A stretch of 59,628 nucleotides of DNA from an uncultured Candidatus Competibacteraceae bacterium (GTDB lineage Bacteria > Bacteroidota > Bacteroidia > CAIKAF01), in the NCBI GenBank assembly GCA_964545365.1, contig CAZJFM010000005.1:12462-72089 (forward strand). Direction: 5' to 3'. How positions within the stretch are numbered: position 1 is the first letter of the stretch; each line of letters opens with the position of its first letter. A program made the position numbers and the translations under genes. The notes under the pieces are model-generated. The model was not told the origin of the DNA. It saw only the letters and a list, made by a program, of their open reading frames with translations, and did not search any database. Below, one piece after another: positions 6,272 through 50,489 of this stretch.

Positions 6272-6631
6272 TCATCCCTTCTGTTTCTTCACCAGTTTCA
6301 GAAGTATATAATTTTCGGTAGCCTCTGCGGAAAAGCCCACATCGTAAACGAAAAAGTGATGAGGGTTTTTGTTATCTCTATGTGTAAAATAGTCAAAATT
6401 AAAACCTGCCTGTTCGAGCATTTCCTTAGAGGGCGTCTGAACTCCTTCTTGAAGGAACTGCGCTAAAATCTTGCGGTTACTTCTTAAAATAGACTCAATC
6501 TTACGAAAACCGGCCTGGTGAGCCTTATACTTTTGATTGTGAAAATTGGTGCGGCAACTGTCGTCGCAAAACTTCTTATCTACCCTCCCCTGAATAGCAG
6601 CGCCGCAATCCATGCAATTTTTCTGGCACAT
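6272..6631 (-). CDS. Zn-ribbon hypothetical protein (DUF2116-like)
   Basis: N-terminal CxxC-x12-CxxxC (CMDC...GRVDKKFCDDSCR). Confidence 0.8.
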   Translation of the reverse strand: MCQKNCMDCGAAIQGRVDKKFCDDSCRTNFHNQKYKAHQAGFRKIESILRSNRKILAQFLQEGVQTPSKEMLEQAGFNFDYFTHRDNKNPHHFFVYDVGFSAEATENYILLKLVKKQKG

Positions 6632-6742
6632 AATTTAGATGGTTTAAAAGTTAAGCAAAATTGCATCATAAATTTACAAAAATGTTTTTTGGTTGTTATT
6701 AGCGTGACTTAAAAAAGTTTACTTTTTATTAACAGTTTGGTG

Positions 6743-7369
6743 TTAGTTGTGAGGCTGATCCGGGATAGATGTTAAAAAGTGGGCAAACTCCTGATCAAAA
6801 CTCTTTCCCATATCTTGCAAGTACCACCGCTGCATGCCCTCTGCAATGTCCGTGGGCTCCAAACCCTGGCCTACCAATTGGGTTCTATACTCCATAGCTT
6901 TTTGAGTTCGTGGCCCCCAGACCCCCAGGACCTCAAGACTAGCTCTTCGCAGTAGTATAAGTTTAGGAATAGACTTGGCACCATTGGTCAAAAATGCATC
7001 CATAAGCCTAGGGTTTGCATCGCGGAGCAGCAAATGAAGCTCGATTTTATCTGAAGCCTCTTCCAACTTTTGAAGCATAGGAATATAATAGGCAGCATCA
7101 CCACACCATGCTTCGGTAATGCAGAGCCATAGCATGGGTTCATTGATAGACATAAGGGCATCCAACAAATGAGACTGGGGCGTCCATTGCTTATATATAC
7201 GACGAGAGCGGGCGGCATTTAATTTGGTGTAATGGATTAGCGCTTTAGATTGAACCGCGCCCGTAGTTTTGCCGTTGGCGATACAATCTTGCACTAACTT
7301 CCGGTATTCCGAAGAGGTCATGGCTTGTTTCAGGAGTTCCGATTTCAGATATTTCATTTTGATTTTCAA
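6743..7369 (-). CDS. Thioredoxin family protein (Thioredoxin_9-like)
   Basis: TEAWCGDA, LRD-N--LMD-FLTNG-KSIPKLI and WGPR motifs. Start may be 7357. Confidence 0.88.
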   Translation of the reverse strand: MKIKMKYLKSELLKQAMTSSEYRKLVQDCIANGKTTGAVQSKALIHYTKLNAARSRRIYKQWTPQSHLLDALMSINEPMLWLCITEAWCGDAAYYIPMLQKLEEASDKIELHLLLRDANPRLMDAFLTNGAKSIPKLILLRRASLEVLGVWGPRTQKAMEYRTQLVGQGLEPTDIAEGMQRWYLQDMGKSFDQEFAHFLTSIPDQPHN

Positions 7370-7395
7370 ATAGTTAACAATAAAGAGCCAAAGAA

Positions 7396-7422
7396 TAAAC
7401 GTTTGTAAACGTTTAATAAACG
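7396..7422. promoter_or_regulatory. Triple direct repeat TAAACG(TTT), candidate operator
   Basis: TAAACGTTT at 7396 and 7406 and TAAACG at 7417, in the divergent thioredoxin/ssb spacer. Confidence 0.45.
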
Positions 7423-7495
7423 ACTAGAGCCAATAGGGGGTTGCACCTTTGTACTGTTCGTTGTTCGAAGCTAAAACGCAAAAACCAAAAGACGC

Positions 7496-7858
7496 ATGAA
7501 AAATCTAAGTAATTCAGTACGCTTGATGGGAAGGTTAGGAGCCGACCCGGAAATCAAAGAACTAGAAAACGGCAGCCGTGTAGCCCGTTTTTCTGTAGCC
7601 ACCTCAGAAATCTACCGAAACCCGTCGGGAGAACGGGTAAGTGAAACACAGTGGCACCAAGTAACTGCCTGGAACAAAATGGCCGAACTTTCGGAAAAAT
7701 TGTTGGGCAAAGGTAGTGAGGTCGCTGTAGAAGGCAAATTGGTTCACAGCAGTTATACCGGTAAAGACGGTCAAAAGAAATACTATACCGAGGTAGTGGT
7801 CCGGGAAATGATGGCCATAGGCCGCAAGGACAAATCTACCGAGGCAGCAGAAGTTTAA
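7496..7858 (+). CDS. ssb: Single-stranded DNA-binding protein, short paralog
   Basis: N-V-L-GRLG-DPE, VARFSVAT, TQWH-V-AW and KGSEVAVEGKL motifs. No C-terminal DDxPF tail. Confidence 0.93.
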   Translation: MKNLSNSVRLMGRLGADPEIKELENGSRVARFSVATSEIYRNPSGERVSETQWHQVTAWNKMAELSEKLLGKGSEVAVEGKLVHSSYTGKDGQKKYYTEVVVREMMAIGRKDKSTEAAEV

Positions 7859-8072
7859 CTTGGGTGGGGGACGAAGAAGTGCCCTGCAGGGGATCTGTGG
7901 GGCCTTCTTTCCTTACATCTCAAAAGCTTGGTTGGTTGGTTTAGGCTTTTCTGCAGTGCACTTTGCCTGCAGAAAGCCAGTCACGCCCGCACTCTTCGCT
8001 CTCTTATATATGCCGCATACCTTTTCATGCGGGCGTGCCTGGCTTTAACGTGAGGTTTGATTTGTTCGCAAA

Positions 8073-8104
8073 AAAAATGCCCTGCGCTGGCGCAGGGCAT
8101 TTTT
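8073..8104. terminator. Bidirectional intrinsic terminator
   Basis: AAAAATGCCCTGCG-CTGG-CGCAGGGCATTTTT between convergent ssb and yceI. Confidence 0.85.
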
Positions 8105-8124
8105 GTGCAAAACAATCTACTGTA

Positions 8125-8793
8125 TTATTGCTTTGGATTTGCTGTAAGCGACAAATCGTATTCAATAATATCGCTGATTACATTGTCCTTTAAGTCATCA
8201 AAAAACTTATCAGATCCGTAACGGATGTCCCATTCGGTACGGTCAATACTAAAGGAAGCCGTTAAATTGGCCTGGTCTTCGGTAGCTGTAAATTGAGCCG
8301 GAAAAGAAATGTTCTTTTCAATGCCTTTAATGGTAAGATTACCGGAAACGTTGTAGTTGTTTCCATCGGCATCTGCTTGCTCCATGGGTTCAGCACTTGT
8401 AATTTCAAAAGAACTCACTGGGTGCGTAGCCACGTCAAAAAAGTCCGGGCTGGTTAGGTGGCCTACCAACTTTTGGTTGGACTCTTGATCTTCCAAATCC
8501 AAATTGGAAATGCTGTTCATGTCAATACTAAATGAACCCGCCGTTAAGGTATCGTTCTCCACGCTTAAACTTCCTTCGGAAATCTGAATGGTACCGTTAT
8601 GGCTAGAACCGGTAACTTTTGAGCCCATCCATCCTAAGGTGGTAGCTTCAACATTTACCGCATAAGTTTTGCTTAAGGCCGTAGCTTCAGCAGCGGCTTG
8701 AGCATCGGTAGCTTCGGTGTTGGCGCCACCACCGCAGGCGGTAAGCAATAAACCAAGGCTTAAAGCAGAAAGAGTTTGTGTGTACATAATCAT
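8125..8793 (-). CDS. YceI family lipoprotein
   Basis: Lipobox LLLTAC; W-GSKVTGS-H-G, HL-SPDFFDV, GNLTIKGI-K-I-F and IDRTEWDIRYGS motifs. TATCTTTG box (8811-8804) upstream. Start is 8793 or 8787, not 9081. Confidence 0.92.
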   Translation of the reverse strand: MIMYTQTLSALSLGLLLTACGGGANTEATDAQAAAEATALSKTYAVNVEATTLGWMGSKVTGSSHNGTIQISEGSLSVENDTLTAGSFSIDMNSISNLDLEDQESNQKLVGHLTSPDFFDVATHPVSSFEITSAEPMEQADADGNNYNVSGNLTIKGIEKNISFPAQFTATEDQANLTASFSIDRTEWDIRYGSDKFFDDLKDNVISDIIEYDLSLTANPKQ

Positions 8794-8920
8794 TGATTTT
8801 TGACAAAGATAATTAATTGTAGGTACAATTAAAATGCTTGCACCATACAGTAAGAAAAAATGAAATGAAAAATTGTTCATTCTTAGATTTATACCCGCAT
8901 AGCTTCTGTATTTTCGCCGT

Positions 8921-10099
8921 ATGAATACGGCAAGCCCCATTCCTATATTAAGCCTTAAAGAAACTAAAGAAGCAAGTGTTTTGAGGCGCCACCGCTGGGT
9001 GTTTTCGGGGGCCTTAAAAAGCATTGCAGTACAACCGGCCCCGGGACAATGGGTATGGCTGGAAAATTCCAACCATAACATACTGGGTAGCGGTTTTTAC
9101 GGCAGGGGCTCTATAGCCATTCGTTTGGTGGGATTTGATAAAATATTACCGGAAGTTTCAGTTTTTGCAGACTTGTTTAAAAACGCCACGGCATATCGTC
9201 GGCAGCTTTCCAGCCTGCAAACACAAGATTGCACAGCAGTGCGCAGGTTTCATGGCGAAGGCGATGGCATACCGGGCCTAATACTGGACAGTTACCAAAA
9301 CCACTTTGTTTTGCAAGGACACCATGAAGGCATTGACCGCTATTTGGATGTAATTATAGAGGCTATACAACAAGTATATGCCCCTGACACTCTATATTAC
9401 CAGCCTGTTTGGCAGGGTCAGGAAGCCCAAAACCGATTTTTATGGGGGAACACAGAATCTTGTATTGTTCAAGAATACGGAATTCAAATGGAGGTCAATT
9501 GGTGTTCCGGCCAAAAAACCGGCACCTTTATTGACCAAAGAGAGCACCGAAAGCTTGCGGCTAGGCTAGCGCAAGGGAAACAGGTCTTAAACGCTTATGC
9601 CTACAGTGGTGGGTTTAGCTTAGCCTGTTTAAAAGGAGGTGCCGAGCATGTTACCAGCTTGGATATTAGCTCCGGTGCCATGCAGCTGCTGGAAAACAAC
9701 CTAAAGCTTAACGGAATAGAGGAACAAAAGCATACCGGTATTACTACCGACGTACCCCCTTGGCTCAGACAGCAAGAACAAGACTTTGATTTAGTGATAT
9801 TGGATCCACCCGCCTTTGCAAAAAAAAGAAACAGTCGGCACCAAGCGATTCAAGCTTACAGAAGGTTAAATGCCTTAGGGTTTAAACGGGTAAAATCCGG
9901 AGGCTTTTTAATGACCTTTTCTTGTTCAGGAGTGGTAGATGAAGGGATGTTTCGGCAAGCGGTTTTTGCAGGAGCCTTAGATGCAGGGGTGCGGGTTAGG
10001 GTTGTAGAAAAGCTTGGGCAACCCGGCGACCACCCGGTGGATCTATTCCATTCAGAAGCCTCATACTTAAAGGGCTTGTTGCTGTATGTGGAAAAATAA
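8921..10099 (+). CDS. rlmI: RlmI/RlmK-like class I SAM-dependent 23S rRNA methyltransferase
   Basis: PUA-like RRHRWVFSGA, GQKTG-F-DQR, LDPPAF and TFSCSG motifs. Confidence 0.88.
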   Translation: MNTASPIPILSLKETKEASVLRRHRWVFSGALKSIAVQPAPGQWVWLENSNHNILGSGFYGRGSIAIRLVGFDKILPEVSVFADLFKNATAYRRQLSSLQTQDCTAVRRFHGEGDGIPGLILDSYQNHFVLQGHHEGIDRYLDVIIEAIQQVYAPDTLYYQPVWQGQEAQNRFLWGNTESCIVQEYGIQMEVNWCSGQKTGTFIDQREHRKLAARLAQGKQVLNAYAYSGGFSLACLKGGAEHVTSLDISSGAMQLLENNLKLNGIEEQKHTGITTDVPPWLRQQEQDFDLVILDPPAFAKKRNSRHQAIQAYRRLNALGFKRVKSGGFLMTFSCSGVVDEGMFRQAVFAGALDAGVRVRVVEKLGQPGDHPVDLFHSEASYLKGLLLYVEK

Positions 10100-11435
10100 G
10101 CTCCAAGCGTTCGGGACCTTGTTGGCTTTGGCGGGTCCTATTTATGCCGGATTATTGGCGCAAAACATCATTGGCATTGCAGACACCGCAATGCTGGGGA
10201 GCTATGGAGCCTTAGAACAGCAGGCAGGTGGTTACGGAGCGCTCTGCATTCTGGTGGTTTATGTAGTAGGCTTTGGCTTTGCATTAGGACTTCAAATACG
10301 CATGGGCCAGGCATTTGGGGCAGCGAAGCCACAAAAGGCACTTGAGTATTTCCGACAAGGAATGCGCCTGTTGGCTTTATATGCCGCCCTTTGGTTTTGT
10401 TTTTTTGCTTTTGCCTCCTACCCCATACTGTATGCCCTAACAAACAATGCAGCCTTAGCTCGGGCCACTTCGGAGTATTTGCTATGGAGGTCACCCGGAG
10501 TATTGTGTTCGCTTCCCTCTTTGGGTTTTTATGCTTTAGCCGTTTCCTCAAACGACTCTAAGCCGGTGGGGCTTGCCTACGTATTGGGTGCCCTTTTAAA
10601 TGTTTCCTTAGATTATTTTTTAATTTTTGGGGTTGGCGTGTTTTCTGAACTGGGCATCCGTGGTGCAGGTTTAGCTTCGGCTATTGCAGATTTCGGGGTT
10701 TTGGCTTTATACGTATTGTATTTTGTTCAAATCAACAAAAAGCACAAGGGATTATTTAAAGGGCGCTATGGCGGCAACCTGACACCACTATTTACCACGG
10801 CGGCTCCTTTGGTTTTGCAGAACGCCTTGTCCATGGCTTCGTGGTTTGCTTTTTTCACGCTTATTGAGCGTACCGGAGCTTTGAATTTTCAACTGTCCAT
10901 CATTTTACGAAGTATCTATGGCGTATTTATGATCGGGGGTATTGCCTTAGGGGCAGCTTGCAACAGTTTGGTAAGTCAGGCCGTTGGGGCAGGCAATTGG
11001 TCCAAAATACCCGGTATCTTGAAGAAAGGAAGCCTCTTAGCGCTCTTTCTTTCGGTGGGCACAGGTTGGCTCATGCCGGTTTTTTCAACCGCTATTACCG
11101 GGCTGTTTACCCCCTCCAATGCTTTGATTCGGATGTCTACACCGAGTTTATGGGTCATTTATTTAGGACTTATTGGCTTTTCTATTGGTCAAATTTGGTT
11201 CAATGGCCTTTCCGGTACTGGAAAAACCATACGAGCTTTGTGGGCCGAGGGCATCTGCTTGGTACTGTACGTAGGTTACACGGCTCTGCTGGTGGTCTTT
11301 AGTGACTCCCCTAAAAGTGAAGTAATTTGGATAGCTGAATGGATTTATGGATTTGGGCTCTTGCTTTGTTCCTTTGTGTTTTTGCACTATTTGCTCAAAA
11401 GACGAAACCCTGAGCCATTGAATTCGTTATCTTAA
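10086..11435 (+). CDS. MATE family efflux transporter
   Basis: About 12 TM helices; N-IIG-ADT-MLG--G and LNV-LDY-LIFG---ELGI-GAGLAS motifs. Confidence 0.88.
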   Translation: MWKNKLQAFGTLLALAGPIYAGLLAQNIIGIADTAMLGSYGALEQQAGGYGALCILVVYVVGFGFALGLQIRMGQAFGAAKPQKALEYFRQGMRLLALYAALWFCFFAFASYPILYALTNNAALARATSEYLLWRSPGVLCSLPSLGFYALAVSSNDSKPVGLAYVLGALLNVSLDYFLIFGVGVFSELGIRGAGLASAIADFGVLALYVLYFVQINKKHKGLFKGRYGGNLTPLFTTAAPLVLQNALSMASWFAFFTLIERTGALNFQLSIILRSIYGVFMIGGIALGAACNSLVSQAVGAGNWSKIPGILKKGSLLALFLSVGTGWLMPVFSTAITGLFTPSNALIRMSTPSLWVIYLGLIGFSIGQIWFNGLSGTGKTIRALWAEGICLVLYVGYTALLVVFSDSPKSEVIWIAEWIYGFGLLLCSFVFLHYLLKRRNPEPLNSLS

Positions 11436-11439
11436 GTAT

Positions 11440-12636
11440 ATGGGAAAATTCCTTTTTTGGCTGTGTTTGTTGTTGGTGTTTGGTTCCGCCCGGCAATTAT
11501 CCGCCCAAGATGCGCTATACACCATTCGAGGTGAAATTATTCCTTGTTATGTAACAGAAGTTAGCGCCACAGACATCATTTATGAACCGACCGAGGGGAA
11601 TTCGGTGGGTAGCAAGGTAATTATTCCTATTGGAGAGGTCAAGCGCATTGTGTTTGAAAATGGTTTAGAGCAATCTTTTGAAAATACGGCTCCGGTAGAA
11701 GGCCCCTACCCCAACGGCAAACAGAGCAAAGACCAACCGGACAAAGTGGTGCTAACCAATGGAGAAGTACTTATTGGGGAGGTGGTAGAAAAAAAACGAT
11801 TTGGCATTACCTTCATTCCTAAATCTTTGGATGGAGCACCTGCCGAGTATATTCCCAACAGCAAAATTGCCCGAATTGAATGGGGCGAAGGGCAAGTGGA
11901 ATACATAAACCCGGGAAAAGAAGAAAGCAATCCAAAGAACTTTGACTATTTGAACCCGCATTTTGTTTCGGTAGCCACAGGAGTAGCCTTGCCCATAGCT
12001 TCTTTTGGAGAAACTCAGTTTTCAGGACTTCCACCGGGTTTTGCCACGGCCGGCTGGCAAATAATGGGAGAAGCCACCTATTATTTGTATCGTGGCATGG
12101 GTTTTTCGGCCATGGGTGGGTATATTTTAAACCCCAGCAACAATCAACCCTATAGGGATCAAATTAGCAACTCCTTTTTTAGCCCTAGTGACTCTACCGC
12201 TTCGGTGAGCTCTCTTTCCGAAGGCGTTTGGCAGCATAGTTTTGTAGCAGGGGCTTTGGGGTATTATTATGAGTCGGAACGCTTTATGTTGGACTCCAGG
12301 TGGATTGTAGGTGCCCTGTTTTCCAGTTACCCGGTTATAGAAGCCGAAGGTACTGCATCGGGAGAATCATTTAACTTAAAGGTAGAACGAGAGTCCAGTC
12401 CTTCGGTTATGTTTGGGGCTGCAGTAACCGGCCGGTATTTTTTGACCCGCAAATGGCAGTTGCGCTTTGGGTTTCAGTTTTTGACCAGTACGAGGACCTT
12501 TAATCAAACGGTAGCCTACAAGACCTTTTCAGACGGAACAGTGCAAGAGAGTGTTCCAACAGGTTCGGGAGTTTCTAGAGAATCCTTTGGAGTGATAAGC
12601 CTGGAAGTTGGAGCCGCCTATACCTTGGGGAAATAA
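11440..12636 (+). CDS. Secreted protein: two tandem beta-rich N-terminal repeats plus probable C-terminal outer-membrane barrel
   Basis: Signal peptide; repeat pattern D---T-GE-----V-E; amphipathic beta strands; ends AYTLGK. Confidence 0.75.
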   Translation: MGKFLFWLCLLLVFGSARQLSAQDALYTIRGEIIPCYVTEVSATDIIYEPTEGNSVGSKVIIPIGEVKRIVFENGLEQSFENTAPVEGPYPNGKQSKDQPDKVVLTNGEVLIGEVVEKKRFGITFIPKSLDGAPAEYIPNSKIARIEWGEGQVEYINPGKEESNPKNFDYLNPHFVSVATGVALPIASFGETQFSGLPPGFATAGWQIMGEATYYLYRGMGFSAMGGYILNPSNNQPYRDQISNSFFSPSDSTASVSSLSEGVWQHSFVAGALGYYYESERFMLDSRWIVGALFSSYPVIEAEGTASGESFNLKVERESSPSVMFGAAVTGRYFLTRKWQLRFGFQFLTSTRTFNQTVAYKTFSDGTVQESVPTGSGVSRESFGVISLEVGAAYTLGK

Positions 12637-12655
12637 ATCCATAGAGTTAGCACCG

Positions 12656-12779
12656 GGCCTTGGGGCTGAGCCGAAAAGCCCGGAGCAGCAAAGCTTAGGG
12701 ACATAGGCACTGAGGATGCGGCGCGCAGCAAGCACCCGGAAGGCTTATGGCCCTTAGCTTTGGGGCGAGGACTTGGAGG
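12656..12779 (-). repeat. Palindromic interspersed element, copy 3 (loop type GCTTGCTGCGC)
   Basis: Reverse complement matches 20027-20150 at 105/124 positions (hand count) with a 34-nt identical core. Confidence 0.92.
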
Positions 12780-12875
12780 GGAGGCCCTTGTGCTAGACAA
12801 AACAAAGTTTCTTTAGTTTCAATACCGATGGTGTAGCCAAAGAACCTCCATTGGTGTAGGGACCAAAGCGAAATC

Positions 12876-13355
12876 TCAGGCCCCCAAAGCCAAAGTAAAA
12901 AACGGAGAGGGGAGTTTTTCTGAGGGTAGGTGGAGCCGCATTTGCAAGCCGTATTCGTGGCTTTTGCTCAAGCAATTGGGCAAGGGACGGTGCAACTTTT
13001 CGGGGCCCAACCAAAGGTTCAGTCCAGCTGCCTGTACTGTAGCAATAGCAGCGAAAGGAGTACTCCACACCTGGGCGAGCAAGGCTGTTTCGGTTGCTTT
13101 GTGCAGCAAGTGAACGCTTGGCCCATTGGCTTTTTGCAAAACAAACTGTGCCGGGTGGAAGGTTGCCGTTTGAAGGGTTTCGGGCAAGGCTTTCCAAGCG
13201 GCTTCTTTTGCTACAAATACCAAAGCGGCGTTTAGGCGGCCGGTAGTAGCTGCTGGTTTTTCGGGAAGCACGCGGGCAAGCTGTGCTGTATTGGGCAGGA
13301 ACCAAGACAGGTAGGGACCTGCGGCGGGTAAAAAATCAATGGCCGGACGAAGCAC
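12876..13355 (-). CDS. Divergent AcpS-type 4'-phosphopantetheinyl transferase
   Basis: FVAKEAAWKA matches the F/W-x-x-KEA-x-x-KA motif. Follows the ACP gene; probable GTG start at 13355. Confidence 0.55.
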   Translation of the reverse strand: MLRPAIDFLPAAGPYLSWFLPNTAQLARVLPEKPAATTGRLNAALVFVAKEAAWKALPETLQTATFHPAQFVLQKANGPSVHLLHKATETALLAQVWSTPFAAIATVQAAGLNLWLGPEKLHRPLPNCLSKSHEYGLQMRLHLPSEKLPSPFFTLALGA

Positions 13356-13599
13356 CGGCTTGGGACAAAATGAGGTCGATGGCTTGCCCAACGGTTTGCA
13401 GGGCCTCCGCCGCTTCGTCGCTGATTTCTATATCAAACGCTTCTTCCACATCCAAAACCACGTCAATCATGTGGGCGGAGTTGATTTTAAGGTCTTTGAG
13501 AAAATCGGAACCTTCGTCCAATTGAGTAAGCAATTCGGCTTCGGGTACGTAAGGCCTTACAATTTCGACCAGTTTTTCTGCTACGGCACTTCTTTCCAT
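13336..13599 (-). CDS. Acyl carrier protein
   Basis: Acidic; DLKINSAHMIDVVLDVEEAFDIEI with the putative phosphopantetheinyl Ser; TVGQAID. Confidence 0.93.
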   Translation of the reverse strand: MERSAVAEKLVEIVRPYVPEAELLTQLDEGSDFLKDLKINSAHMIDVVLDVEEAFDIEISDEAAEALQTVGQAIDLILSQAGASSGH

Positions 13600-13619
13600 A
13601 GCACAAAAATAGGGAAAGA

Positions 13620-14906
13620 TTAGCGCTTCTCTTCCCATTTGCGCAAAAGCAGTACCGCATTTACGTCGCCGAAGCCAAAGCCGGATTTTGCAATAATCTT
13701 AAGATTTGGAACCTTAACAGCGGTTTTGGGTACGGCCTTTTCGGGAAGGATATCGGCAATATCGGGGTGCAGTGGCATGGCATTAAGGCTTGGATGGATA
13801 TAGCCTCCACGAAGTTGTAAGAGGCAGGCCACGGCCTCGATGGATCCGGCAGCGCCCAAGCAATGGCCAATCATGCTTTTGGTGCTGTTGATATAGGGGA
13901 AGCTTCCCTGAGCTATGTTGAGTGCTTTTTGCCAGTTCTTAACTTCTTTGGGGTCGCCCATGGTTGCGGTAAGGTGTCCGTTGATGGCGTCTACCTTGTC
14001 TCCGGTAATTTGGGCATCTTGGAGTGCCATTTGCATGGCCCTTACGACGGCTTCGGAGTTTGAGGCCGTCATGGTTCCACCTTGGAGTTGGCCACCGGAG
14101 TTGATGGCTCCTCCCAAATATTCTCCCAAGATGGTAGCGCCTCTGGATTGGGCATGTTCGAGGGATTCAAGCACCAGGGCGCCTGCGCCCGCTCCGGGCA
14201 CAAAGCCTGCTGCCCTGGAAGAAAGGGGTGCGGAAGCTTCTTCGGGATGACCATTTGCCTGACGGACCAAAACGCGCATGCTGTCAAAGCCTCCCCAAAC
14301 ATAGGGGCCTTCGGAGTCGCAACTGCCGGCCAGCATGACCTTTGCTTTGCCTTGGCGGATGCGTTCGGCAGCCAAAATGATGGATTCTGTGCCGGTAGCG
14401 CAGGCCGAAGAGTTGGTGGAGCATTGGTTTCCCAGGCCAAACATACCGCAAAGCCAAGCCGAAATACCGGAGGCCATGGTTTGTTCTACGACCCGTGAGC
14501 CAAGTTTGCGGACTTTCCCCTCATCGACTTTATAAATGGCTTCTCGAAGGGGTTCAACTCCGGAAAGACCGGTTCCAAACTGTGTTCCGGCATCGGCCCA
14601 GGGCGCTTGCCCAACTTCGGGGAAAGGCAAGCCGGCCATTCTCCAGGCTTCTCTGGCAGCCAAAAGACCATATACCAGGCCTGAGCTGGTTAAGAATCTA
14701 CGGGTTAGGGGATCAAATTCCGCTTGGAGTAAATCCTCTTGAATAGGCGGAACTGCGCTTATTTGGCAAGCAAAGCCCAAGTCAACCAGTCGCGAATCCG
14801 GACGTACGCCGGACCTACCTGCACGGAGGGCTTGGTCAAAATCAGAGCAACCAATGGCGTTGGGAGCAACTACGCCCATGCCGGTAACGACAATTCTTTG
14901 ACTCAT
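13620..14906 (-). CDS. fabF: Beta-ketoacyl-ACP synthase II (cluster-specific)
   Basis: VVTGMG, ACATG (Cys), NGHLTAT and GHCLGAAG (two His) and SGFGFG motifs. Confidence 0.93.
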   Translation of the reverse strand: MSQRIVVTGMGVVAPNAIGCSDFDQALRAGRSGVRPDSRLVDLGFACQISAVPPIQEDLLQAEFDPLTRRFLTSSGLVYGLLAAREAWRMAGLPFPEVGQAPWADAGTQFGTGLSGVEPLREAIYKVDEGKVRKLGSRVVEQTMASGISAWLCGMFGLGNQCSTNSSACATGTESIILAAERIRQGKAKVMLAGSCDSEGPYVWGGFDSMRVLVRQANGHPEEASAPLSSRAAGFVPGAGAGALVLESLEHAQSRGATILGEYLGGAINSGGQLQGGTMTASNSEAVVRAMQMALQDAQITGDKVDAINGHLTATMGDPKEVKNWQKALNIAQGSFPYINSTKSMIGHCLGAAGSIEAVACLLQLRGGYIHPSLNAMPLHPDIADILPEKAVPKTAVKVPNLKIIAKSGFGFGDVNAVLLLRKWEEKR

Positions 14907-15388
14907 GGGTTAGAGAACATGCCGGAGAGGGTGCCGGCGCATATTTTTTTTCCGTCTTGATTAAACATGGCCACCTTGCATTGCAGTTTACGCAAGCGAA
15001 AATATTCTTTTTGAGACTCGACCCAGACTTGATCACCGGGTCGCACCATTTTATGGAATTGAACGTTGGAGGAGGTAAAGAATATGCGTGCTGATTTTAG
15101 GACCAAGGGGTCGGCGCCACACAAATAAACCCCTAAAGAAACCAGTCCGATTTGGGCCATGGTTTCGGTAAGAATTACCCCCGGTGTAACCGGAAAATCA
15201 GGAAAATGTCCTTGGTAAAAACTTTCGTTGGATTTGTAGGTGTAGGTACCCACCACATGGTTTTCATCGATAGACAAGATGCGATCGATAAAACGAAAAG
15301 GGCTTTGTTGCGGAATGCAAGCTAGAATATTTCCGGCCAGCGTTTCGTCGGGAGATTTATATAGTTCTTCAGATAAGCGTTTCACCAC
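14903..15388 (-). CDS. fabZ: 3-hydroxyacyl-ACP dehydratase (FabZ/FabA hotdog fold)
   Basis: PQQSPFRFID and GHFP--PVTPGVILTETMAQ motifs. Confidence 0.92.
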   Translation of the reverse strand: MVKRLSEELYKSPDETLAGNILACIPQQSPFRFIDRILSIDENHVVGTYTYKSNESFYQGHFPDFPVTPGVILTETMAQIGLVSLGVYLCGADPLVLKSARIFFTSSNVQFHKMVRPGDQVWVESQKEYFRLRKLQCKVAMFNQDGKKICAGTLSGMFSNP

Positions 15389-16151
15389 CGTCCACTGGGA
15401 TTATCGCACCATTGATCCAATTGGCCTCTTGGCGGGAAAGCAAATATACAACATTCGCTACATCCTCCGGTGTGGTGAGTCGTTGTACTGGATGCAATTT
15501 ACGTACTTCTTCTATTTTTTGATCGATGCCCGGCAACACCTTAAGGGCCGGAGTAGGTGTGATACCTGCCTGAATAAGGTTAGTTCTAAGCCCATATTTA
15601 AAAAATTCAGCGGCCATGTACCTGCCTAAGCTTTCTAGGGAAGCTTTGGCCATGCCAATAGCTGCATAGCCGGGCAGACTTCGACTGCTTCCCATGCTTG
15701 TAAAGGCCAAATTAGCCGCTTGAGGGGCGAAGAACCCCAGTTGAAGGGCCTCACGGCTCCATTCCAGCCAGTTTAGAGCCATGGCCTCCCAGGTTAGGCT
15801 TAGGTCCTTGGCCGAAAGCTCTTTCCCTTGACCTTCGGCCCATAGTATACCCGGAGTGCCTCGCGAAATCGAATGCAGCAACAGACCAAGCTTTCCTTTG
15901 GCTTCCTGCATAGCTTCCCAAATCTCCGGACGGGTTTCTGCACTAAGGGCATTGGTATTTATGGGCACCAATTGCGCACCAAAAGTTTCCTTCCATTCGT
16001 CTACAAGTGCTCTATGGGGCGCGCGCCTTTCTCGGTACACCGCCCAAACCTTCCAACCCTTAGAGGCCAGCTTTTCGGCCGAGGCCCTTCCCAAACCGGA
16101 AGAAGCCCCAAGTATCAGGGCGTGCTTTTCTTGTGGGGCATTTATGTCCAT
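15369..16151 (-). CDS. Enoyl-ACP reductase-like SDR (FabL/FabI type)
   Basis: GASSGLG; Y-x6-K catalytic spacing (YAAIGMAK); PVDGG. Start ATG 16151 overlaps the PKS stop. Confidence 0.85.
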   Translation of the reverse strand: MDINAPQEKHALILGASSGLGRASAEKLASKGWKVWAVYRERRAPHRALVDEWKETFGAQLVPINTNALSAETRPEIWEAMQEAKGKLGLLLHSISRGTPGILWAEGQGKELSAKDLSLTWEAMALNWLEWSREALQLGFFAPQAANLAFTSMGSSRSLPGYAAIGMAKASLESLGRYMAAEFFKYGLRTNLIQAGITPTPALKVLPGIDQKIEEVRKLHPVQRLTTPEDVANVVYLLSRQEANWINGAIIPVDGGETLI

Positions 16152-17209
16152 CTCAACAAAATATTTTGAGCAGAGAAACCCGGACCAAAGCTCAGCATGA
16201 GTCCTGTATCTCCGGCAGCAGGTTGGCTTTGCTGACAAGCATGCAAAACAAAAAGAACCGTAGCCGAAGACATGTTGCCGTAGGTTTTTAGAACCTCACG
16301 GGTAAAGCGCATGTCCTTGCCAAAAGGTTCAATGAGCGCCTCTACCATTTGAATGATTTTTTTCCCTCCCGGATGAAACACAAAGTGGTCTATTTCTTCT
16401 ATGCTGAGTCCATGTTTGGCCAAAAAAGGAGGCAAGATATTGGGAAAGTGCTTTTCTATGGTTGTGGGGACCTCCGGGTCTAACACAATATGCAGGCCCG
16501 ACTCTTTTAAGTCGAAACCCATCATACGGGTTTCGTTAAAAAAGTGGTACATGGCGGAATCTACCAAAGTCGGCACCCCCGGTCTTTGGTCGTCGGGGTG
16601 CGTAGAAACTAAGGCACTTGCCAAGCCATCGCCAAAAATAGCTGCCGACACAATATTGGTAAAGCTGTAGTCGTCGTACTGAAAGGTAGACGTTGGGGAC
16701 TCAAAGGCTAAAACCACGGCACGTTTACCGGGTTGGTTGGCCAACAGCTCTCTGGCATACATCAAACCTGAAGTCCCGCCTGCACAGCCCATTTCTGTTA
16801 TGGGCATTCGAATTACATCGCCTTTAAAACCTAAGGCATTGACCAAGTAGGCATCCAAGGATGGGATCATAAGCCCGGTGCAGGAGGTGGTAATGAAGTA
16901 ATCTACCTGATTGGCTTTGAGCTGCGCATTCTTAAAGAGTGTTTCTAAATTGGCTTCGGCTAATGGAATCATCTTTTCCATAAACCGGTCGTTTCTTTTG
17001 GCGAAACTTTCTCTTTGAAACACTTCGTGGGCAGGCATAATAGAATAGCGGGCATCTACCCCTGCATTTCTAAATATACGGCGTGCCTTTTGGAGGTCTC
17101 GCTCACTCCGCCCTTGCATCCACGACTCCACATACTCCATAATCACAGGCAATGGCTCTGAATAAGGAGGCAGAGTTATAGAGGTAGCAAGTATGTGTGG
17201 ATACATCAT
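16142..17209 (-). CDS. Type III polyketide synthase
   Basis: Cys-His-Asn triad: MGCAGG, FHPGG and YGNMSSA; also FGDG and FGPG. ATG at 17209 overlaps the methyltransferase stop. Confidence 0.95.
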   Translation of the reverse strand: MMYPHILATSITLPPYSEPLPVIMEYVESWMQGRSERDLQKARRIFRNAGVDARYSIMPAHEVFQRESFAKRNDRFMEKMIPLAEANLETLFKNAQLKANQVDYFITTSCTGLMIPSLDAYLVNALGFKGDVIRMPITEMGCAGGTSGLMYARELLANQPGKRAVVLAFESPTSTFQYDDYSFTNIVSAAIFGDGLASALVSTHPDDQRPGVPTLVDSAMYHFFNETRMMGFDLKESGLHIVLDPEVPTTIEKHFPNILPPFLAKHGLSIEEIDHFVFHPGGKKIIQMVEALIEPFGKDMRFTREVLKTYGNMSSATVLFVLHACQQSQPAAGDTGLMLSFGPGFSAQNILLRWT

Positions 17210-17949
17210 AGGTGTTGGGTAGTTGCTGAAAAAATCATTCGGCCGGGCAGGGCTTTCTTTTTTAATTCCCAAGAGTTCCAACCGGAATTTTCGGCCATGA
17301 AAATCCAGTCATTTCTTTTAAAAGAACGCAAAATGGACAGTGCCCCATCGTGCCGGGAAACCTCAGATAGGCCCAGCACAAAGCTAAGCAATCGGAAGCC
17401 ATAGAAGCTTAGGGGACGTCGCTCCAAATCGTCCCAAATCATCCCAAGGCGCAAATGACTTCGTGCACATGTCCAAAGCTCAAGGATTTCGGAGTTCCTC
17501 AAATGGTGCAAAAACAGGCTTCCCACCAAAACATCAAAGGGACCTTGGGCGGCGAGTACCCGTTCTGCTTTATCTTGCACCACCCGGGCTTGATTGCTTA
17601 GTCCGGCTTTAGCCAGCTTTTCTTTTGCCAAAGCACAGGCCAAAGGATCTACATCCACGGCCGTCCACTCCCATGACAAATGATGTTTTTGCGCCTTTTT
17701 CAAAATGGCAACCATAGATGCCCCTGAGCCACTTCCGCATTCTAAAATACGCAATGGTTTATGGGCATGCTCCTTGGAAACACGAACTAGGGTTTGAAAA
17801 AGGGTTTCATAAACGCCCATAAAGCGATTGATACGATCTATTTCTTGGTAATTGAGTCGCTTTTGGCTTTCGGAAAGTCCGAGGTCCATCCATTCGGGGC
17901 CCGGGTGCCTGCTTCCAAAATCAGGTGAATGGGGCAAGAGGCTTTCCAT
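17206..17949 (-). CDS. SAM-dependent methyltransferase
   Basis: ILECGSGSG motif I, FLHH, WDDL-R and HDG--SI-RSF motifs. Confidence 0.88.
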   Translation of the reverse strand: MESLLPHSPDFGSRHPGPEWMDLGLSESQKRLNYQEIDRINRFMGVYETLFQTLVRVSKEHAHKPLRILECGSGSGASMVAILKKAQKHHLSWEWTAVDVDPLACALAKEKLAKAGLSNQARVVQDKAERVLAAQGPFDVLVGSLFLHHLRNSEILELWTCARSHLRLGMIWDDLERRPLSFYGFRLLSFVLGLSEVSRHDGALSILRSFKRNDWIFMAENSGWNSWELKKKALPGRMIFSATTQHL

Positions 17950-19057
17950 GGCTCTGTTTGATAAGTTGGTGTGTAATGGGAGGCAAAACCGCAGCTGTAC
18001 CTAAGGCCAGTTCGGTGAGCAGCGTTCCACCAAAAAGCCCTTGCATGGTTTTTCCAAAGCGCAATCGACCCTGAATCTGGGCATTCCAAGCAGATTGATA
18101 ATGGCTAAGAGCTGCTTTCCTAAGCTGCGGCTTTGCCTCAACCGAGCGAAGGGCCTCCAACCATAAACGGGCACTCCGAATGGCCAGGGCCATGCCGTTG
18201 CCACTTAATGGAGCAATAAGCCCGGCAGAATCGCCAAGCATGGGAAGCCCTTGAGTTATGGCTCCTCTGGCACTGAAACGCACTCCTGATATGGCTTGCG
18301 GCTTTTCCCAAACTTTTTTACTCTTTCTTAGCAATTGTTCCAAATGCGGATTTTGACTCAACACATTTTGTTCCAATGCTTCCACCCCACCGGCTTTCTT
18401 TACGGTTGAGGTACGGACTAAATAACATAAGTTCACCAAACCTGTCTCGGTTTGGGAAACCCCGGCATAGCCCCCTTTAAAATTATGCAAGGCCACCAAA
18501 TCGGTTGACCAATCGGCTTCCAAATGCCACTTAATTCCGGAATACAAGGTGCCTTCACGCAAAAAAGAGCGGTTAAGTTGCCGATCAGGCTGTCCAAGTT
18601 TTCCATAGGCCATAATGAGCCAATTGGCGCTGTAGGTCCCATTTTTGCTTCGAACCACATACCCCTCTTTCTCCAATTCAAAGCCCAAATAGGGCTCTTG
18701 AAGAGCCACTCGAACCCCTGCAGCTTCGGCTTTTTGATACAAATAGTAATCCATAGCCCAGCGGCTTAAGCCTAAACTTTCTTGATCTAAATTGGCCTGC
18801 AAGGCACGGCCAGATGGAGCACTTAACCATAGTTTTTTGATGCGCGCCGGATTCAAGGACTCAAAATCTACGTCCAAGCTTTTTAAAAAAGGTAGGACTT
18901 CACCACTAATAAACTCGCCGCACACCTTATGACGCGGCAAATTTCCTTTTTCGAGCACCAATACCTTAAGGCCCATTTGGGCCATACCAATGGCTGAGCT
19001 TAATCCTGCCAAACCTCCGCCTACTACCAAGGCATCGTAATGATGGGTTAGATTCAC
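17921..19057 (-). CDS. FAD-dependent oxidoreductase (aromatic hydroxylase/geranylgeranyl reductase family)
   Basis: VVGGGLAG, HKVCGE and GDSAGLIAPLSGNGM motifs. GTG start at 19057 overlaps the upstream TGA. Confidence 0.9.
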   Translation of the reverse strand: MNLTHHYDALVVGGGLAGLSSAIGMAQMGLKVLVLEKGNLPRHKVCGEFISGEVLPFLKSLDVDFESLNPARIKKLWLSAPSGRALQANLDQESLGLSRWAMDYYLYQKAEAAGVRVALQEPYLGFELEKEGYVVRSKNGTYSANWLIMAYGKLGQPDRQLNRSFLREGTLYSGIKWHLEADWSTDLVALHNFKGGYAGVSQTETGLVNLCYLVRTSTVKKAGGVEALEQNVLSQNPHLEQLLRKSKKVWEKPQAISGVRFSARGAITQGLPMLGDSAGLIAPLSGNGMALAIRSARLWLEALRSVEAKPQLRKAALSHYQSAWNAQIQGRLRFGKTMQGLFGGTLLTELALGTAAVLPPITHQLIKQSHGKPLAPFT

Positions 19058-19635
19058 TCCTGCAAATTTACGCAAGCCCGAGAAAGCGTTAGCGTCCAGT
19101 CTTGATGAAGCCTTAACCCGGTTCCCAAATATACAGGCTCGCCCATGGGCAGCGTCCAATACGTAGATAGCATCATGGGAACCGAACCGGGCGCCTGCCG
19201 AGATCCAGCCATGGCTTCTCCCAAGCGAAGTAAACTTCCCAAGCTAAGTCCCCGGTAATGTATTTGGCAAGGATACTCCTGCTGCATTACCCATGCTCCC
19301 TGAAGCAATTTATCTATAATGGCTCTTGGTACCTGCGCCTCCACATGCAACAAAAGACTGTCTTCAAAAACCGAACCGGTTTGTGGAGCCCAAGCTTCAG
19401 AACGATTGGCATCCGCTCCAAAAGCAAGGGTTCTTACCCAAATGTCCAATCGTTCGCTACCCGAGGACCAACGCACCAAACTTTGGGAACTGCGCCAAGG
19501 CCCTTCCCCGCCGGCAAGCAACTCTGCACCCGACCGGCACTCAAAACCACCCGGGTCCGATGGCCATTGACCTCTTACTGATCCAAACGCCAATAAAACA
19601 AAGCATATGGTTGCAAACCAAGTCGTTGATTTCAT
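19054..19635 (-). CDS. Secreted hypothetical protein, first gene of the PKS operon
   Basis: Signal peptide (MKSTTWFATICFVLLAFGSVRG); its stop overlaps the start of the next gene (GTGA). Confidence 0.7.
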   Translation of the reverse strand: MKSTTWFATICFVLLAFGSVRGQWPSDPGGFECRSGAELLAGGEGPWRSSQSLVRWSSGSERLDIWVRTLAFGADANRSEAWAPQTGSVFEDSLLLHVEAQVPRAIIDKLLQGAWVMQQEYPCQIHYRGLSLGSLLRLGEAMAGSRQAPGSVPMMLSTYWTLPMGEPVYLGTGLRLHQDWTLTLSRACVNLQE

Positions 19636-19974
19636 GTAAATTCAAAGGTCTGTATATTTAAGCTAATCCCCCATTTTGTTAAGAAAGTTTACCACTTGCA
19701 TCGGTAGCTTATCACTTACATACCCTGCAGACTCAGCTTTGTTTCATCAAAAAAATCAAAGATTTAAGCCATGGCCATGCCAAAGAGCATCCAAACCTGA
19801 AATTCCTATTGAAGGGGTCAAAAACGGCAGTATTTACCTAAAAAAGCCGGCTGGGCGGCGCGCGACTAAGCGGCCACAGGCCTGGTGTTAAAAGGCATAA
19901 GTTGCCCCCGCTTCTTTATTGCCTGTTTACTTGCCTTCTTTTGTTTATTGAATTGCTTGCTTGGCTTAAGGGTA

Positions 19975-20150
19975 TTTGGGGCCCCAAGTGCGTTGCTCAA
20001 CAAAAAGGATTTTGCACGGGTATCCGCCTCCAAGTCCTCGCCCAAAGCCTAAGGGAGGCAAGGCTTCCGGGTGCTTGCTGCGCGCCGCATCCTCAGTCCC
20101 TGCCTCCCTAAGGCTTGGTGCTCCGGGCTTTTTGGCTCCTCCCCAGGGCC
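19975..20150 (+). repeat. Palindromic interspersed element, copy 4 (loop type GCTTGCTGCGC)
   Basis: Starts TTTGGGGGCC; 20027-20150 is about 85% identical to the reverse complement of 12656-12779. Confidence 0.92.
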
Positions 20151-30288: not shown

Positions 30289-31287
30289 ATGGAGCATAAA
30301 GCATACATCACCGGGCTTGGGAAATACTTGCCGGAGGAAAAAGTAAGCAATGCAGACTTGGAAAAGCTTATGGACACTACCGATGCTTGGATTCGGGAAC
30401 GAACCGGTATTCAAGAGCGCAGATTCTTTACTCCAGGCAAGGAAAGTACAGCTACCATGGGCGCCGAAGCTGCCAAACAAGCGCTGGAACGCGCCGGCCG
30501 CCGCCCCGAAGACATAGACTTGTTGCTGTTTTCCACCTTAAGTCCGGACTATTATTTCCCGGGCTGTGGCGTTTTGTTGCAAGAGATGCTGGGACTCAAA
30601 AATATTGGCTGCATAGACCTTAGAGCACAATGCAGTGGTTTTATTTATGGCTTGTCGGTGGCTCAAGCCTACATCAAATCAGGTATGGCTAAGCGGATTC
30701 TGTTGGTATGCAGCGAAGCGCAGTCGACCTTAATGGAGTTGAGCAACCGAGGACGCAATGTGGCCGTTATTTTTGGAGACGGTGCCGGCGCAGCAGTTTT
30801 AGAAGCCTGCACGGACGACCGAGGCATAGCCGACGTACAAATCCACAGCGAAGGGCAACATGCCGAAATGCTCTACCAACCGCACCCGGGAACCCGTTTA
30901 AGGCCTAGACTTAGCAGCGAAATGCTGCAAGATGGCAGCCTTTTGCCGGTCATGAACGGCAATGCCGTATTCAAGCATGCAGTAATTCGCTTTGAAGAAG
31001 TCATCCGAGCCAACCTAAAACAGGCCGGCATTGGGCTCGAAGAGCTAAACCTTCTCATTCCACACCAAGCCAACTTAAGGATTTCAGAGTTTCTAAGGAA
31101 ACAGTTGGGACTGGCCGAAACCCAGGTATACAACAACATTCAACGGTATGGAAATACCACGGCAGCATCTATTCCCATAGCGCTCACCGAAGCTTGGGAA
31201 GAAGGACGCCTAAAGCAAGGCGATTGGATTCAAATGGCGGCCTTTGGCAGCGGATTTACTTGGGGAGGAGCCTTAATGCGGTGGTAA
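30289..31287 (+). CDS. fabH: 3-oxoacyl-ACP synthase III
   Basis: WI-ERTGI-ERR, QCSGF, HQAN-RI, GNTTAASIP and FGSGFTWG motifs. Confidence 0.95.
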   Translation: MEHKAYITGLGKYLPEEKVSNADLEKLMDTTDAWIRERTGIQERRFFTPGKESTATMGAEAAKQALERAGRRPEDIDLLLFSTLSPDYYFPGCGVLLQEMLGLKNIGCIDLRAQCSGFIYGLSVAQAYIKSGMAKRILLVCSEAQSTLMELSNRGRNVAVIFGDGAGAAVLEACTDDRGIADVQIHSEGQHAEMLYQPHPGTRLRPRLSSEMLQDGSLLPVMNGNAVFKHAVIRFEEVIRANLKQAGIGLEELNLLIPHQANLRISEFLRKQLGLAETQVYNNIQRYGNTTAASIPIALTEAWEEGRLKQGDWIQMAAFGSGFTWGGALMRW

Positions 31288-49005: not shown

Positions 49006-49173
49006 GGCCTTAAAATACAATTCCTATGGAGGCTTACCACAGTTTTTAGAGCATTTAACCCTCTTTTTATTCCAACTAAAATTGAGGGAACAACAGTAAA
49101 CTCAATAACACTCAAATAAAAAAGGCCGGTAGATGCTTCCAATGTAGTCCCGGTAGGCAGCCAAAAAGGAAAA

Positions 49174-50370: not shown

Positions 50371-50489
50371 TAAAGCCTGAACACAATCCGGATATGATTG
50401 CCCGGTGAACAAATGTATTGCAACAATATACAGTCAATTGCTCAGGAATGCACCATCCCTAAGGTTATACTTTAACAAAGAAAACCGGA

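Follow-up and report, generated by a model that had tools for sequence, protein, structure and literature searches.

Tailoring of a type III polyketide synthase (PKS) product by a methyltransferase and a flavoprotein has precedents in HidABC (PMC8086630, PMC6836626) and in the Srs and Pkq systems (PMC9927152). In hidABC (hierridin, from Cyanobium) and in the planctomycete mtr-fdo-t3pks operon, the PKS gene shares one operon with genes for an S-adenosylmethionine (SAM)-dependent methyltransferase and for an oxidoreductase that depends on FAD; methylation and, as proposed, hydroxylation follow once the PKS has made C15/C17 alkylresorcinols (PMC6836626, PMC8086630, PMC10896814), and expression of the planctomycete operon gave C15/C17 alkylresorcinols with one methylation (PMC10896814). 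SrsABC (Streptomyces griseus) and PkqABC (Mycobacterium smegmatis, Streptomyces MNU77) follow the same logic of alkylresorcinol synthase, methyltransferase and oxidoreductase, and their products are alkyl-(methoxy)benzoquinones, lipids with a role in protection or as alternative carriers of electrons (PMC9927152). Hand-off of a starter from an acyl carrier protein (ACP) to a type III PKS also has precedents: in ArsABCD (Azotobacter vinelandii) and Steely1/2 (Dictyostelium) a dedicated fatty acid synthase (FAS) passes the chain from its own ACP to the PKS (PMC3098273), and in cylindrocyclophane biosynthesis CylH, a β-ketoacyl synthase (KS)-ACP unit without reductive domains, supplies the resorcinol-forming PKS CylI (PMC8086630). 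Here we analyze an operon of nine open reading frames (ORFs), g1 to g9 from upstream to downstream, at positions 12876–19635 (minus strand) of a 59,628-nucleotide stretch of contig CAZJFM010000005.1 (assembly GCA_964545365.1), from an uncultured marine member of Bacteroidota; we refer to this stretch as the window.

What sets this operon apart is that type II elongation enzymes, dissociated and incomplete as a set, are joined, along with an ACP and a phosphopantetheinyl transferase (PPTase; probably decayed in the window, see below) of their own, to the triad of PKS, methyltransferase and flavoprotein. The hidABC and planctomycete operons have no private KS, dehydratase (DH), enoyl reductase (ER), ACP or PPTase, and their order is methyltransferase-flavoprotein-PKS, whereas the window has flavoprotein-methyltransferase-PKS; the likeness is one of gene content. 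Srs and Pkq come without FAS-like genes. ArsABCD and the Steely enzymes use a complete multidomain type I FAS with ketoreductase (KR) and acyltransferase (AT) domains, whereas the set in the window consists of discrete type II proteins with neither KR nor AT, and its cluster has a single PKS, not two. CylH is a type I module, its pathway dimerizes the product to a paracyclophane, and it has no methyltransferase/flavoprotein pair. The operon would represent a third solution beside the type I FAS of Azotobacter and Dictyostelium and the type I PKS module of cyanobacteria.

We propose, with moderate confidence, that the operon specifies a phenolic-lipid pathway of two modules, in which a private elongation set feeds the type III PKS and the product is methylated and oxidized. 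The first module would be a private, partial type II elongation set formed by the KS (g7), DH (g6), ER (g5) and ACP (g8). FabD would load malonate onto holo-g8, and the KS would condense a fatty acyl chain from primary metabolism with this malonate; the housekeeping FabG would then reduce, the DH dehydrate and the ER, where present, reduce the intermediate, in one or several rounds, leaving the private ACP loaded with a defined acyl chain. FabD and FabG and, in the genome of the window, phosphopantetheinylation would be borrowed. The second module would be the widespread triad of type III PKS (g4), class I methyltransferase (g3) and flavoprotein (g2): the PKS would take the chain from g8, add malonyl-CoA units and cyclize it to an alkyl-phenol, most likely a 5-alkylresorcinol, which g3 may methylate and g2 oxidize on the ring, most likely by hydroxylation. 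The predicted end product is a methylated alkyl-hydroquinone or a benzoquinone-type membrane lipid.

Organization and Conservation of the Operon

All nine ORFs were verified at their coordinates as consecutive genes on the minus strand; positions are those of the window, starts were refined on the annotation of a close relative (GCA_030427255.1, locus L081, 96.6% DNA identity across the region), and each junction was checked. Six of the seven junctions between g1 and g8 overlap (g1/g2 by 4 nucleotides (nt), GTGA; g2/g3 by 29 nt; g3/g4 by 4 nt, ATGA; g4/g5 by 10 nt; g5/g6 by 20 nt; g6/g7 by 4 nt), in agreement with the near-continuous stop/start overlaps described in an earlier interpretation of this DNA (the sequence-only reading). 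The sole gap among these genes, 20 nt at the g7–g8 junction, lies ahead of the ACP gene. The PKS, methyltransferase and flavoprotein genes of the triad (g2, g3 and g4) are adjacent and overlap within the same operon. Protein families were assigned with Pfam and NCBIfam. None of g2 to g8 reaches an NCBIfam equivalog cutoff, and we therefore regard them as diverged paralogs and not as housekeeping enzymes.

Comparison with the close relative shows that substitutions in g2 to g8 are strongly concentrated at third codon positions (21 of 24 in g2, 34 of 39 in g4 and 14 of 15 in g6), which indicates purifying selection on these genes. In aquatic samples, parts of g1/g2, g2, g4, g5, g6/g7 and g8 into g9 are covered by metatranscriptome contigs, and the sequence is present in seawater, lagoon and aquaculture metagenomes. 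The operon is real and, by these contigs, transcribed.

A pattern scan for relatives of the PKS, using one genome per species, found such a gene in at least 589 species-level Bacteroidota genomes, and we read the gene order in 70 well-flanked loci. The flavoprotein and methyltransferase genes are present in all 70, DH and KS in 69 each, ACP in 66, PPTase in 63 and ER in 40. The order flavoprotein-methyltransferase-PKS-(ER)-DH-KS-ACP-PPTase is the same in 70 of 70 related loci, so that the arrangement goes far beyond chance. These loci span Flavobacteriales, Sphingobacteriales, Chitinophagales and Cytophagales and include Flavobacterium, Pedobacter, Chitinophaga, Winogradskyella, Polaribacter, Saprospiraceae and Cyclobacteriaceae; many marine uncultured lineages are carriers besides the named genera. 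The sequence-only reading had mentioned similar clusters in Flavobacteria, and the cluster is indeed found in Flavobacterium, including F. johnsoniae. It had also drawn attention to the pairing of the PKS with a private KS/DH/ER/ACP set, a pairing that we find conserved across loci. F. johnsoniae is genetically tractable, which makes the pathway directly testable. In that species the cluster occupies positions 8001–13378 of locus L093, with genes for a TetR regulator and for a hotdog protein resembling 4HBT/acyl-ACP thioesterases immediately upstream of its flavoprotein gene (6588–7714); these may contribute regulation and release, functions without a counterpart in the window.

The triad also occurs outside Bacteroidota. 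When we searched plasmid records with g2 by tblastn, the homologs in Alphaproteobacteria adjoined type III PKS and methyltransferase genes in all five annotated loci inspected, among them loci of Paracoccus, Methylobacterium and Sphingobium indicum. The PKS/methyltransferase/flavoprotein logic pointed out by the sequence-only reading is thus conserved both in the 70 Bacteroidota loci and in Alphaproteobacteria. In two sphingomonads, Novosphingobium pentaromativorans (plasmid pLA3; L087, 2076–7059) and Sphingobium yanoikuyae (plasmid pKN1; L092, 1719–6038), the operon reads ACP-KS-PKS-(methyltransferase)-flavoprotein. These operons, for which we found no characterization, share five functions with the window, and their flavoproteins and methyltransferases are 28–33% and 26–28% identical to g2 and g3, respectively; the flavoproteins also share a HK(V/I/A)CGE(F/Y) motif with g2, in the sphingomonads as HK(I/A)CGEF. 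Unlike the window they contain no DH, ER or PPTase. The sphingomonad and Bacteroidota KSs are each nearer to FabF (∼180–230 bits) than to each other (94–115 bits), and the sphingomonad ACPs have no detectable similarity to g8, so that their KS is no ortholog of g7 and their ACP none of g8. We therefore conclude that a KS-ACP pair was recruited to the triad independently, at least twice. This independent gain is our strongest argument for a private ACP-bound chain as the starter of the PKS, and it argues that such a starter matters.

These data also bear on the idea that the operon holds two unrelated pathways, in which the triad, like SrsA, HidC and the planctomycete enzymes, would be served by the general pool of acyl-CoA or acyl-AcpP, and the KS, DH, ER and ACP would make a separate, specialized fatty acid. 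The triad does work without private FAS genes in other phyla (including PMC10896814), and ACP and PPTase are absent from relatives of the window organism at 64% PKS identity. Yet the PKS is translationally coupled to ER, DH and KS, the genes are strictly adjacent in 69 of 70 loci from four orders, and the sphingomonads gained KS and ACP beside the triad independently. We thus consider two unrelated pathways improbable.

Elongation Enzymes and Starter Supply

The KS (g7; 13620–14906, 428 amino acids, ATG start) is a FabF-like β-ketoacyl-ACP synthase paralog with N- and C-terminal ketoacyl-synt domains and conserved Cys/His/His residues, for which fabF is the best NCBIfam model (261 bits; cutoff 493.75). 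The dedicated ACP (g8; 13336–13599, 87 amino acids, ATG start) matches acyl_carrier with 49 bits (cutoff 70) as well as PP-binding, and the Ser in its DLKINS motif is conserved. The cluster KS shares 60% sequence identity with the cluster ortholog in relatives and 33% with the housekeeping FabF of a relative, and the ACP is 38% identical to the AcpP of a relative; judged by these identities, both are paralogs distinct from housekeeping FabF and AcpP. The DH (g6; 14903–15388, 161 amino acids, GTG start) is a FabZ-like (ApeI-like) 3-hydroxyacyl-ACP dehydratase with a Pfam FabA domain, an NCBIfam FabZ score of 84.9 bits (cutoff 113) and matches to FabZ structures in the PDB at 1e-16; its GHFP..PGV..E motif retains the catalytic His and Glu, and its orthologs carry an ApeI-like Pfam match. 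The ER (g5; 15369–16151, 260 amino acids, ATG start) is a short-chain dehydrogenase/reductase (SDR) with an adh_short_C2 domain, whose best NCBIfam model is FabL (135.8 bits; below the 328-bit cutoff). Its Y-x6-K motif (YAAIGMAK) is kept across the family and has enoyl-reductase spacing, not the Y-x3-K of FabG; this motif indicates that g5 works like a FabL-type enoyl-ACP reductase, from which membership in the FabL equivalog family does not follow. KS, ACP, DH and ER of a type II FAS are all present with intact catalytic motifs, and the family assignments of the sequence-only reading (methyltransferase, enoyl reductase, FabZ, FabF and ACP) were borne out by Pfam, NCBIfam and these motifs.

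No KR, FabD or FabH is found among the ORFs of the operon with Pfam and NCBIfam (the sole SDR has the Y-x6-K motif), and neither database reports an AT domain in any of them. Domain scan and SDR motif agree with the earlier statement that FabG, FabH and FabD are missing. The operon was also described as self-contained, a term that we cannot retain: it has no KR and no malonyl-CoA:ACP transacylase, and its PPTase looks decayed. KR, malonyl transferase and a working PPTase must come from elsewhere. A FabH (KAS III) gene, presumably the housekeeping initiator, lies outside the cluster at 30289–31287 (plus strand), 10.6 kb from the operon.

How many rounds the elongation set performs affects what reaches the PKS. 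Instead of building a long chain, KS and ACP might transfer an acyl group derived from FAS to the private ACP in a single Claisen condensation, and the PKS would then receive a β-ketoacyl-, a 2-enoyl- (without ER) or a saturated (with ER) acyl-ACP, in the manner of CylI supplied by CylH; presence or absence of the ER would decide whether the side chain has a double bond next to the ring. The sphingomonad clusters, which have just ACP and KS beside the triad and neither DH nor ER, are in line with such a hand-off, as are the patchy distribution of the ER within genera, the consistent absence of a KR and the published precedent of CylH (KS-AT-ACP) feeding CylI (PMC8086630). A DH is, however, encoded in 69 of 70 Bacteroidota loci and needs 3-hydroxyacyl groups as its substrate, so that FabG has to be borrowed in any case, and iterative rounds become equally possible. 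The sequences themselves set no limit on the number of rounds. A single-round hand-off appears rather unlikely to us.

The Type III PKS and Its Tailoring Enzymes

The PKS (g4; 16142–17209, 355 amino acids, ATG start) contains Chal_sti_synt_N and Chal_sti_synt_C domains (PF00195, 55.7 bits, and PF02797, 79.3 bits; cutoff 27 each) and a FAE1_CUT1_RppA match. Its catalytic triad, Cys-142, His-279 and Asn-312, is unchanged in 22 aligned family members, so that the type III PKS with intact Cys-His-Asn reported from the sequence alone holds. A homolog search scored 8000 candidates, of which 7987 reached E ≤ 1e-10; among the best 120, every match with a name is from Bacteroidota. The nearest solved structure is M. 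tuberculosis Pks11 (E = 2.5e-52), followed by THNS; CylI is fourth-best, and Steely1 is also among the solved relatives. That a long-chain-acyl enzyme is the best solved relative supports the two-module pathway.

The top NCBIfam model of the PKS is DpgA, with 157 bits (cutoff 425). This match, together with THNS as second-best solved relative, the ApeI-like Pfam matches of the DH and the lack of an ER in about half of the clusters, would fit a reverse order of events, in which the PKS, like DpgA and THNS, would convert malonyl-CoA into a small aromatic acyl thioester, and KS, DH and ACP would elongate it to a lipid of aryl-alkyl or aryl-polyene-like type. However, the DpgA match lies far under its cutoff, and the best solved relative, Pks11, is a long-chain enzyme. 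Moreover, the KR, thioesterase, lipid transferases and exporter of aryl-polyene clusters are found in none of the loci with inspected flanks, and the cluster in the window contains a FabL-type ER. We regard the reverse order as highly improbable.

The methyltransferase (g3; 17206–17949, 247 amino acids, ATG start) is a class I SAM-dependent enzyme with a Pfam Methyltransf_25 domain, matches NCBIfam PRK06202 over almost its full length (110.8 bits) and shares 26–28% sequence identity with its counterparts next to the type III PKS genes of Novosphingobium and Sphingobium. Srs pairs a membrane methyltransferase of ICMT type (SrsB) with a hydroxylase that resembles UbiH (SrsC). Its likeness to the window is thus probably one of analogy and not of orthology, since g3 is a class I Rossmann enzyme and g2 matches the geranylgeranyl reductase (GGR) superfamily best. 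The SrsABC logic invoked in the sequence-only reading stands as a conserved triad, but the class of g3, set against that of SrsB, suggests no orthology.

The FAD flavoprotein (g2; 17921–19057, 378 amino acids, GTG start) has a Pfam FAD_binding_3 domain, and its best family model is NCBIfam GG-red-SF (TIGR02032; 99.1 bits, cutoff 158.8), with QhpG scoring 84 bits; the models of ring-hydroxylating QhpG, LodB and GoxB match over the full length. A Foldseek search with its AlphaFold2 (AF2) model (pLDDT 92.6) returned 3oz2 (GGR-like) at the top, then the halogenases FasV, ChlB4, PltA and Bmp2, and then flavin (group A) monooxygenases. A HKVCGE motif is invariant, as are Cys-46 and Lys-153 across the family. 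The GD.AG..PL.GNGM motif and Cys-46 in CGE resemble GGRs, but the YxWxFP lipid-binding motif of GGRs is missing, and GGY(C/A)GxS stands in its place in the family. The flavoprotein is a member of the GGR/group-A-monooxygenase/halogenase fold superfamily. The earlier label of FAD oxidoreductase holds, whereas g2 is no hydroxylase of the UbiH type, given its best match to the GGR superfamily and the invariant CGE cysteine, and ring hydroxylation by g2 is a prediction.

We also considered a halogenase on account of matches to FasV, PltA, Bmp2, Mpy16, PltM and CtcP. Halogenases are marked by a strictly conserved Lys ∼25–30 residues past GxGE and by a WxWxIP motif. Both are absent: residues 72–75 of g2 are variable with no invariant Lys, and WxWxIP occurs in no family member, and we rejected this assignment.

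Our preferred reading is that g2 acts as a hydroxylase, by pathway analogy with HidB and SrsC/PkqC. Alternatively, it might reduce a side-chain C=C bond or a quinone, in which case the pathway would end in a methylated alkylresorcinol whose chain is modified, and not in a quinone. The best family model, the top Foldseek match to GGR-like 3oz2, the GGR-like invariant Cys of CGE and the label menaquinone-9 β-reductase that some sources give to g2 orthologs all agree with a reductase. On the other side, g2 scores below the GG-red-SF cutoff and has no YxWxFP lipid-anchor motif, the aromatic-ring hydroxylators QhpG, LodB and GoxB match it over the full length, and the triad is found in clusters without any source of unsaturation; HidB and SrsC, moreover, provide the extra ring oxygen in the published analogy (PMC6836626, PMC9927152). 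We consider a reductase a serious alternative, though the less probable of the two functions.

A further homolog of g2 with 34% identity over 97% of the query is encoded on a plasmid of Hymenobacter sp. DG01 (L086, 3125–8134), where its gene immediately follows those for an isonitrile synthase and for a dioxygenase of the TauD/TfdA type. In this different context the flavoprotein would again act on an aromatic metabolite.

Several observations speak against the two-module pathway with its ring-hydroxylating flavoprotein. The ER is absent from 30 of 70 loci, patchily even within genera, and ACP and PPTase are missing in the relatives of the window organism at 64% PKS identity, in which the cluster lies 1.6 kb from the housekeeping genes acpP-fabF-rnc; parts of the private module can thus vary or be dispensed with. 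Since none of the clusters contains a KR or FabD, the module cannot act alone. The metatranscriptome contigs are of low depth and may include DNA carry-over, which makes them weak evidence. The flavoprotein has neither the ADG..S nor the GDAAH-type motif of classical aromatic hydroxylases, and its invariant CGE cysteine is typical of GGRs. In the PKS, the invariant Phe-232 occupies what we take to be, by way of the MGW motif of Pks11, the position of Trp-281 in ArsB. Trp at this position marks the resorcinol type and Gly the pyrone type, and Phe matches neither. Finally, the full text of papers available without subscription yielded no characterized product of the cluster and no assay of an enzyme of the family, and the sequence-only reading likewise knew of no characterized product. 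Genome-mining papers list Bacteroidota type III PKS clusters, detected by antiSMASH, without a known-cluster match (PMC7440613, PMC10752948, PMC9323603, PMC12565237).

Knowing the product of the cluster would close a gap that recurs in what is charted of the lipids and secondary metabolites of a phylum dominant in the environment. If the product is quinone-like, of the kind found in mycobacteria and Streptomyces, it would matter for respiration and oxidative stress in marine and soil Bacteroidota. As a speculation that we ourselves think doubtful, a redox-active alkyl-methoxy-(hydro)quinone pathway might be common in aerobic Bacteroidota, with the PKS forming a ring from a private ACP-bound acyl or alkenyl chain, a GGR-type flavoprotein with a catalytic cysteine and the class I methyltransferase acting on that ring, the ER setting a saturated versus an alkenyl variant and the product serving as an auxiliary electron carrier or envelope antioxidant beside menaquinone. 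If true, the flavoprotein would bring new tailoring chemistry to phenolic lipids.

Genes at the Operon Ends and Transcription Signals

The first gene (g1; 19054–19635, 193 amino acids, ATG start) encodes a protein with an N-terminal signal peptide and is coupled to g2 through the GTGA overlap. It has no Pfam or NCBIfam match, and searches of 5.8e9 proteins and of 1.84e9 representatives returned only homologs of 99% and 83% identity. Comparison with the 83% identical ortholog shows a variable signal peptide ahead of a conserved mature part. The gene is missing from 83 more distant loci (L001–L080 and L082–L084), and only the close relative L081 carries it, with 19 synonymous and 10 non-synonymous codon changes; g1 is under some constraint. 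Its AF2 model is of low confidence (pLDDT 49.6). We conclude that g1 is a lineage-specific orphan outside the conserved cluster: signal peptide and coupling confirm the secreted protein that the sequence-only reading had placed in the operon, but its absence from the 83 distant loci removes it from the cluster proper. Small exported proteins recur beside these pathways, since a small secreted DUF2147 protein precedes the pLA3 operon in place of g1, and one planctomycete-related operon includes lipoprotein and YceI-like genes (PMC10896814).

At the other end, g9 (12876–13391, 171 amino acids) occupies the position of an AcpS-type PPTase. It starts with TTG, has no ATG and is uncalled in the annotation of L081. 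Its Pfam ACPS score of 20.5 bits is below the 25-bit cutoff, a hidden Markov model (HMM) built for the PPTase family of the cluster reaches E = 0.09, with the KEAAxK motif as its only match, and of the GNDIVD, KEAxxK and SxSHHG motifs only KEAAWK is clearly recognizable. The 15 substitutions relative to L081 are distributed 7/4/4 over the three codon positions, with no codon-position bias. In 63 of the 70 other loci this position is held by a clear ACPS gene that scores 36–47 bits with Pfam and begins MIGNDIVDL. On the sub-threshold Pfam score, the family HMM and the unbiased substitutions we rejected a working AcpS, and the earlier label AcpS-like does not hold beyond a marginal match. The ORF is probably a decaying relic of an AcpS-type PPTase, so that in this genome even the activation of the ACP is not provided by the cluster itself.

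A terminator-like hairpin (GCCGG..CCGGC followed by CATTGATTTTTT; 13342–13359, minus strand), located by a consensus scan and in the sequence, lies at the stop codon of the ACP gene. It is read through by some transcription, as an RNA contig covering 13126–13408 runs from g8 into g9. A σ70 scan, which does not cover Bacteroidota promoters, found no promoter better than those in shuffled sequences, and no TAnnTTTG match was seen by eye upstream of g1. No Rfam family was detected anywhere in the window.

Repeats and Neighboring Genes

A 124-nt hairpin-forming, dispersed REP-like repeat bounds the operon. The downstream copy (12656–12779) folds with −58.9 kcal/mol (z = −3.0), and the upstream copy (20027–20150), between the 3′ end of RecQ and g1, with −64.7 kcal/mol (z = −3.3). 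The copies are inverted, 85% complementary and bracket the whole operon, each at a gene 3′ end, and both are also present in L081. We considered them as the terminal repeats of a mobile island, an idea that is weakened by the 31-nt repeat core, which has ∼10-fold word depth in three metagenome assemblies and occurs in a third flanking context; the repeat is therefore a dispersed REP-like element and not an operon-specific terminal repeat. Two scans of JGI metagenome contigs found no copy. Between the upstream repeat and g1, L081 has ∼1 kb of extra DNA (L081, 6524–7534) with an ORF of 336 amino acids on the opposite strand and no Pfam match; the window has 264 unrelated bases in its place (19701–19965).

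Less than 5 kb from the 3′ end of the operon, a YceI-like (lipid/polyisoprenoid-binding) protein (8125–9081, minus strand) and a MATE efflux transporter (10086–11435, plus strand) are encoded in separate transcription units. The window further contains dnaA (39057–40490, plus strand), rho (51001–52755) and recF (55054–56151). The cumulative GC skew peaks at ∼14–16 kb, inside the operon, and gene orientation flips at a convergent point near 12.7 kb; this may mark a replication landmark or reflect the strand bias of the genes. Two genes at 48055–50412 (minus strand), for a histidine-specific SAM methyltransferase with a Methyltransf_33 domain (EgtD-like) and a DinB_2/FGE-sulfatase protein (EgtB-like), look like an ergothioneine biosynthesis pair.

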